Assembly: GCF_003334255.1 (NCBI RefSeq)
Contig: NZ_QOWU01000004.1
DNA: 64,000 nucleotides
Source: Escherichia coli
Lineage (GTDB): Bacteria > Pseudomonadota > Gammaproteobacteria > Enterobacterales > Enterobacteriaceae
Reading direction: 5' to 3' (one strand)
Part shown: positions 45,806 to 45,945 of the stretch, piece after piece
Layout of the letters: each line of letters begins with the position of its first letter
Position numbering within the stretch: position 1 is the stretch's first letter
The notes under the pieces: model-generated
Databases searched by the model: none
Told to the model about the DNA's origin: nothing
The model's input: only the letters and a program-made list of their open reading frames with translations
Program-made: the position numbers and the translations under genes

Positions 45806-45900
45806 AAAAAAAAAGCCAGCACCCGGCTGGCTAAGTAATACTGGAAGCAATGTGAGCAATGTCGTGCTTTCAGGTTCTCCGCGAGGGTCTTCCTGATCGC
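45806..45900 (-). ncRNA. ryhB: Fur-repressed small RNA RyhB
   Basis: Minus strand reads GCGATCAGGAAGACCCTCGCGGAGAACCTGAAAGCACGACATTGCTCACATTGCTTCCAGTATTACTTAGCCAGCCGGGTGCTGGCTTTTTTTTT; matches RyhB as recalled, including terminator hairpin and U-tract. Confidence 0.92.
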
Positions 45901-45945
45901 GAGACAATAATAATCATTCTCATTCGCACTTGTCCAACACTTTTT
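45901..45945 (-). promoter_or_regulatory. ryhB promoter with Fur box
   Basis: Minus strand upstream of RyhB +1 reads ...gaatgagaatgattattattgtctc; Fur-box-like overlapping the -10 region. Confidence 0.6.

Follow-up and report, generated by a model that had tools for sequence, protein, structure and literature searches.

The RyhB locus in the yhhX-yhhY spacer

The question raised by this locus is what gene occupies the spacer between yhhX and yhhY in the 64-kb stretch of Escherichia coli DNA analyzed here (the window), and which of the neighboring genes could share its control. A sequence-only reading had placed the small RNA RyhB on the minus strand of this spacer and had given the spacer as 330 bp; measured between the yhhX start codon (45689) and the yhhY ATG (46022) it is 332 bp, and these bases are the same as those of K-12, base for base. 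Downstream of ryhB on the same strand is yhhX, an oxidoreductase gene (44652-45689, minus strand; NCBIfam NF007574, 779.8 bits, and MG1655 annotation), and the divergent neighbor is yhhY, a GNAT N-acetyltransferase gene (46022-46510, plus strand; NCBIfam NF007527, 373.2 bits, and MG1655 annotation). The order yhhX-ryhB-yhhY is common to MG1655, E2865 and 23AR0151.

Identity of the gene

The minus strand from 45900 to 45806 (GCGATCAGGAAGACCCTCGCGGAGAACCTGAAAGCACGACATTGCTCACATTGCTTCCAGTATTACTTAGCCAGCCGGGTGCTGGCTTTTTTTTT) carries a 95-nt ryhB gene that opens with GCGATCAGG from the +1 G at 45900 and ends in the terminal U-tract, position 45806 being the last of nine T's. All 95 nt agree with ncRNA ryhB b4451 ("small regulatory RNA RyhB") of E. 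coli K-12 MG1655 (NC_000913.3; 100% identity), and what the sequence-only reading had called a near-exact copy is thus RyhB, as it held, but an exact copy. A covariance-model scan, the check it had proposed, was run with 4227 Rfam families at gathering thresholds on both strands of the whole 64 kb and returned a sole match, to RF00057 (RyhB) at 45871-45807 (minus strand), at a score of 83.1 bits, where the gathering score is 55, and with an E-value of 3.6e-14 for the whole window, by which chance is excluded. The alignment covers the whole model (positions 1-67 of 67), with all consensus pairs formed and no non-canonical pairs. When 44500-47000 was compared with Rfam again at a permissive E <= 1, to see whether the spacer or its flanks contain another RNA element, RyhB alone came up, and no tRNA or tmRNA was found in a scan of the full 64 kb.

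The Rfam model, identity to K-12, synteny, promoter, Fur box and terminator all agree with the placement of RyhB between yhhX and yhhY, and from these sequence features it is virtually certain that the locus is chromosomal ryhB with a Fur-repressed promoter, in a strain of E. coli that is very closely related to K-12. RyhB is a well-characterized Hfq-binding small RNA (PMC4509938). The locus is a textbook one, in its canonical position and already known in every respect, and nothing new is added to it here.

That the spacer instead encodes a protein is vanishingly improbable. Two minus-strand reading frames that pass through RyhB are indeed in the six-frame list, one of 95 aa (45712-45999) and one of 53 aa (45746-45907), but the longer would start upstream of the -35 hexamer and then pass through Fur box, transcription start and terminator alike. 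The MG1655 annotation has neither frame, nor do PGAP-annotated genomes, and the conservation is accounted for by the RNA covariance model. Both overlapping frames were accordingly rejected as coding. With the RNA gene as the occupant of the spacer, the remark that a six-frame track is blind to it also stands, and routine annotation misses it too: in most complete E. coli genomes the automatic RefSeq (PGAP) annotation lists no feature under ryhB, a gap in annotation that does not count against the gene. The value of the locus is as a control, being a non-coding gene that was recognized without tools though missed by ORF tracks and by RefSeq automatic annotation.

Promoter and Fur box

A simple promoter scan located a sigma-70 promoter on the minus strand at 45907-45936, having a -35 hexamer TGGACA (45936-45931), an 18-bp spacer and a -10 hexamer TATTAT (45912-45907). 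It matches 10 of the 12 hexamer positions, places +1 at about 45900, and is the only promoter-like site that the scan found on either strand within 45600-46100. A Fur box lies at 45903-45921 (GACAATAATAATCATTCTC on the plus strand). Measured against the 19-bp consensus GATAATGATAATCATTATC, this site agrees at 16 of 19 positions (3 mismatches), is unique in the 64 kb, and compares with 0.01 such sites expected from shuffled sequences. The box spans -21 to -3 relative to the ryhB start and overlaps the -10 hexamer, which, taken from the sequence, is the geometry to be expected for repression by promoter occlusion.

The K-12 site of identical sequence was scored at 25.2 bits at -15 by Chen et al. 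(PMC2189734), who confirmed Fur binding to it by gel shift; ryhB is repressed by Fur (PMC2189734). A Fur-box-like sequence directly before RyhB had been part of the sequence-only reading, and both the 16/19 match and the gel shift of the K-12 counterpart bear it out.

Terminator and predicted fold

The 3' end of the gene (45806-45832, minus strand) is a Rho-independent terminator and Hfq-binding module supported by the terminator scan, the minimum free energy (MFE) fold and the Rfam consensus structure, with a 7-bp stem containing five GC pairs, a 5-nt loop and nine U's. The hairpin itself, AGCCAGC-CGGGT-GCTGGCT at 45832-45814 (minus strand), is followed by TTTTTTTT; it contains the GCCAGCCGGGUGCUGGC picked out earlier by eye as the terminator hairpin, with the T-run after it as described. 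It is present in both the MFE and the centroid folds, and the hairpin together with the polyU tail makes up the Hfq-binding module of RyhB (PMC4509938). A second terminator-like site at 45783-45768 (minus strand) has three GC pairs and a poor T-tail, and was set aside as being at chance frequency (2 sites versus 0.6 expected).

The MFE fold of RyhB consists of three stem-loops, and the core that pairs with targets lies in the apical or loop part of the middle one (stem-loop 2). The folding energy does not differ significantly from that of shuffled sequences (z = -0.67), so that folding energy alone would have missed ryhB; the value is not counter-evidence, since the argument rests on the covariance-model match and on exact sequence identity.

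Target pairing and proposed mechanism

Targets of RyhB encode non-essential iron-using proteins, sodB and sdhCDAB among them, and RNase E-dependent decay is involved in their repression. Nucleotides 38-46 of RyhB (45855-45863, minus strand), GACAUUGCU, lie in the single-stranded pairing region and are the exact 9-nt Watson-Crick complement of AGCAAUGUC, which extends across the sodB start codon in MG1655. This core seed, identified through its complementarity to sodB, fits a pairing that would occlude the sodB translation-initiation region. When full-length RyhB was paired with the sodB leader in RNAduplex, an implausibly long duplex resulted, because the program ignores intramolecular structure; that result was discarded and the exact-complement result kept. 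Repression by RyhB is direct for a set of target operons (PMC2189734).

From these elements a sequence of events can be proposed. When iron is plentiful, Fe2+-Fur would sit on the Fur box over the -10 hexamer and block RNA polymerase; when iron is scarce, Fur would leave and the sigma-70 promoter would fire, giving a transcript of about 90-95 nt that ends at the Rho-independent terminator. Hfq would bind the hairpin of this terminator and the U-tail at the 3' end, and the single-stranded core (about nt 37-50) would pair with the translation-initiation regions of sodB and sdhCDAB-type mRNAs, leading to a translation block and RNase E decay by which iron would be spared. A fraction of the transcripts may read through the terminator into yhhX. 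In this outline the identity and family of the gene, the anatomy of promoter, Fur box and terminator, the seed complementarity to sodB and the conservation in E. coli come from sequence analysis of the present locus, whereas what is said of Fur binding, Hfq dependence, repression of targets and read-through is taken from publications on K-12, whose sequence is identical.

The pairing core also varies naturally in one instance. In E. coli 23AR0151, a clinical isolate (NZ_CP195448.1; L004:1501-1604, corresponding to about 45846-45863 of the window), a 9-nt tandem duplication, ACATTGCTC, is found in the RyhB core, where a natural imperfect direct repeat, ACAUUGCUC/ACAUUGCUU, has become three copies. 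As judged from the repeat, this looks like slippage within the RyhB seed region.

Conservation and relation to K-12

Among 5426 complete E. coli genomes, both the 95-nt ryhB and the 341-bp region were found in 5425. The gene is at least 99% identical in 5359 of the 5426; the median copy number is one, and the gene is always chromosomal. One genome of the 5426 had no match to ryhB or to the spacer, and a few had matches at up to three places.

Comparison by BLAST showed zero mismatches between 39884-48311 of the window and 3575000-3583427 of MG1655. Past 48311 the window is without the 768-bp IS1E that is present in K-12 yrhA, and then continues at 99.95% identity (3 substitutions in the next 5.8 kb). 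The yrhA gene, split by IS1E in MG1655, is intact in the window (47922-48416, plus strand; 164 aa; NCBIfam YrhA family, 122 bits). The two BLAST segments overlap by 9 bp at 48303-48311, which is the size of the IS1 target-site duplication, and the position therefore looks like an empty site. By this comparison the source of the window is a very close K-12 relative having an intact yrhA and no IS1 copy there.

Read-through and the neighboring genes

On the far side of yhhY is an AT-rich islet (about 46400-49000) in which GC content falls to 0.28-0.35, versus about 0.5 in the flanks. It contains yhhZ, yrhA, yrhD and yrhB; yhhZ has an N-terminal domain of the TssD/Hcp1 family followed by a long C-terminal extension, and is labeled "putative endonuclease" in MG1655. 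The whole looks like a horizontally acquired module of an orphan Hcp effector with immunity-type genes. Its distance from RyhB had been put at about 900 bp, in keeping with the fall in GC from about 46400 and with the yhhZ start at 46747, 847 bp from +1.

It had further been suggested that iron-dependent read-through might reach this toxin islet. Transcription of ryhB runs toward lower coordinates on the minus strand, toward yhhX (44652-45689), and yhhY, yhhZ and yrhA are plus-strand genes beyond the promoter. Read-through from ryhB, moving away from the islet, is thus geometrically unable to enter it and would go instead to yhhX. Frequent read-through of the ryhB terminator was observed on plasmids by Morita et al. 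(PMC4509938), and a 2022 study reported that iron limitation raises yhhX in wild type, whereas no rise was seen in a ryhB deletion lacking the promoter as well (PMC8896160). In the 116 bp that separate the RyhB terminator from the start codon of yhhX (45690-45805), a simple scan found no promoter-like site, which fits a dependence of yhhX, at least in part, on read-through from the ryhB promoter. Together, these findings make yhhX the likely recipient of ryhB read-through. No role for YhhX in iron starvation was found reported in the literature consulted or in MG1655 or NCBIfam annotation. A target labeled yhhX/yhhY, having no recognizable FNR site, was also reported by FNR ChIP-chip (PMC1802558); its position, 3,578,508 in the old K-12 numbering, corresponds to about 45370 of the window, inside yhhX. 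For iron-dependent read-through, yhhX and not the toxin islet is the place to look.

With read-through excluded, co-regulation of the islet could come about only if the Fur site also acted on a yhhY promoter in the divergent direction, for which no evidence was found. That such a bidirectional site brings iron control to yhhY and, by way of yhhY, to the yhhZ/yrhA Hcp-nuclease toxin islet is improbable. It would accord with the location of the Fur box, about 100 bp before the yhhY ATG, and with the entry of yhhY in one Fur regulon list drawn from a transcription-network database (PMC2710865). A fragment of the yhhX-yhhY spacer from in vivo Fur titration was likewise first assigned to a flanking gene, but Chen et al. 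pointed out that the Fur site once so assigned sits right before ryhB (PMC2189734). Moreover, the scan of 45600-46100 detected no sigma-70-like promoter on the plus strand, an AT-rich gap of 236 bp separates yhhY from yhhZ, and RyhB transcription proceeds in the opposite direction, so that read-through to the yhhY side is ruled out by geometry.

A still broader proposal, slightly less probable again, is that the Fur cluster controls both flanks, with ryhB-yhhX forming an sRNA-mRNA operon by read-through and a Fur-repressed divergent yhhY promoter tying the islet to iron. Published work supports the yhhX half of this proposal; the half that concerns the toxin islet lacks support.

Comparison with known systems

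The preferred reading, a Fur-repressed ryhB whose read-through would go to yhhX, has its closest counterpart in K-12 itself, where RyhB (b4451) has the same 95 nt, promoter, Fur box, terminator, flanking genes and 332-bp spacer as the window. The arrangement at the 3' side resembles sgrS-setA, in which a small RNA is co-transcribed with its downstream gene by read-through; ryhB likewise has a terminator that is leaky on plasmids and yhhX downstream on the same strand, although, compared with sgrS-setA, ryhB-yhhX co-transcription is so far a proposal (PMC4509938). In other enterobacteria the orthologue is kept between yhhX and yhhY (PMC3415461). The RyhB-2/IsrE paralogues of Klebsiella and Salmonella belong to the same family as RyhB and give those genera a second copy elsewhere, whereas the median for complete E. 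coli genomes is one copy and the window contains one match.
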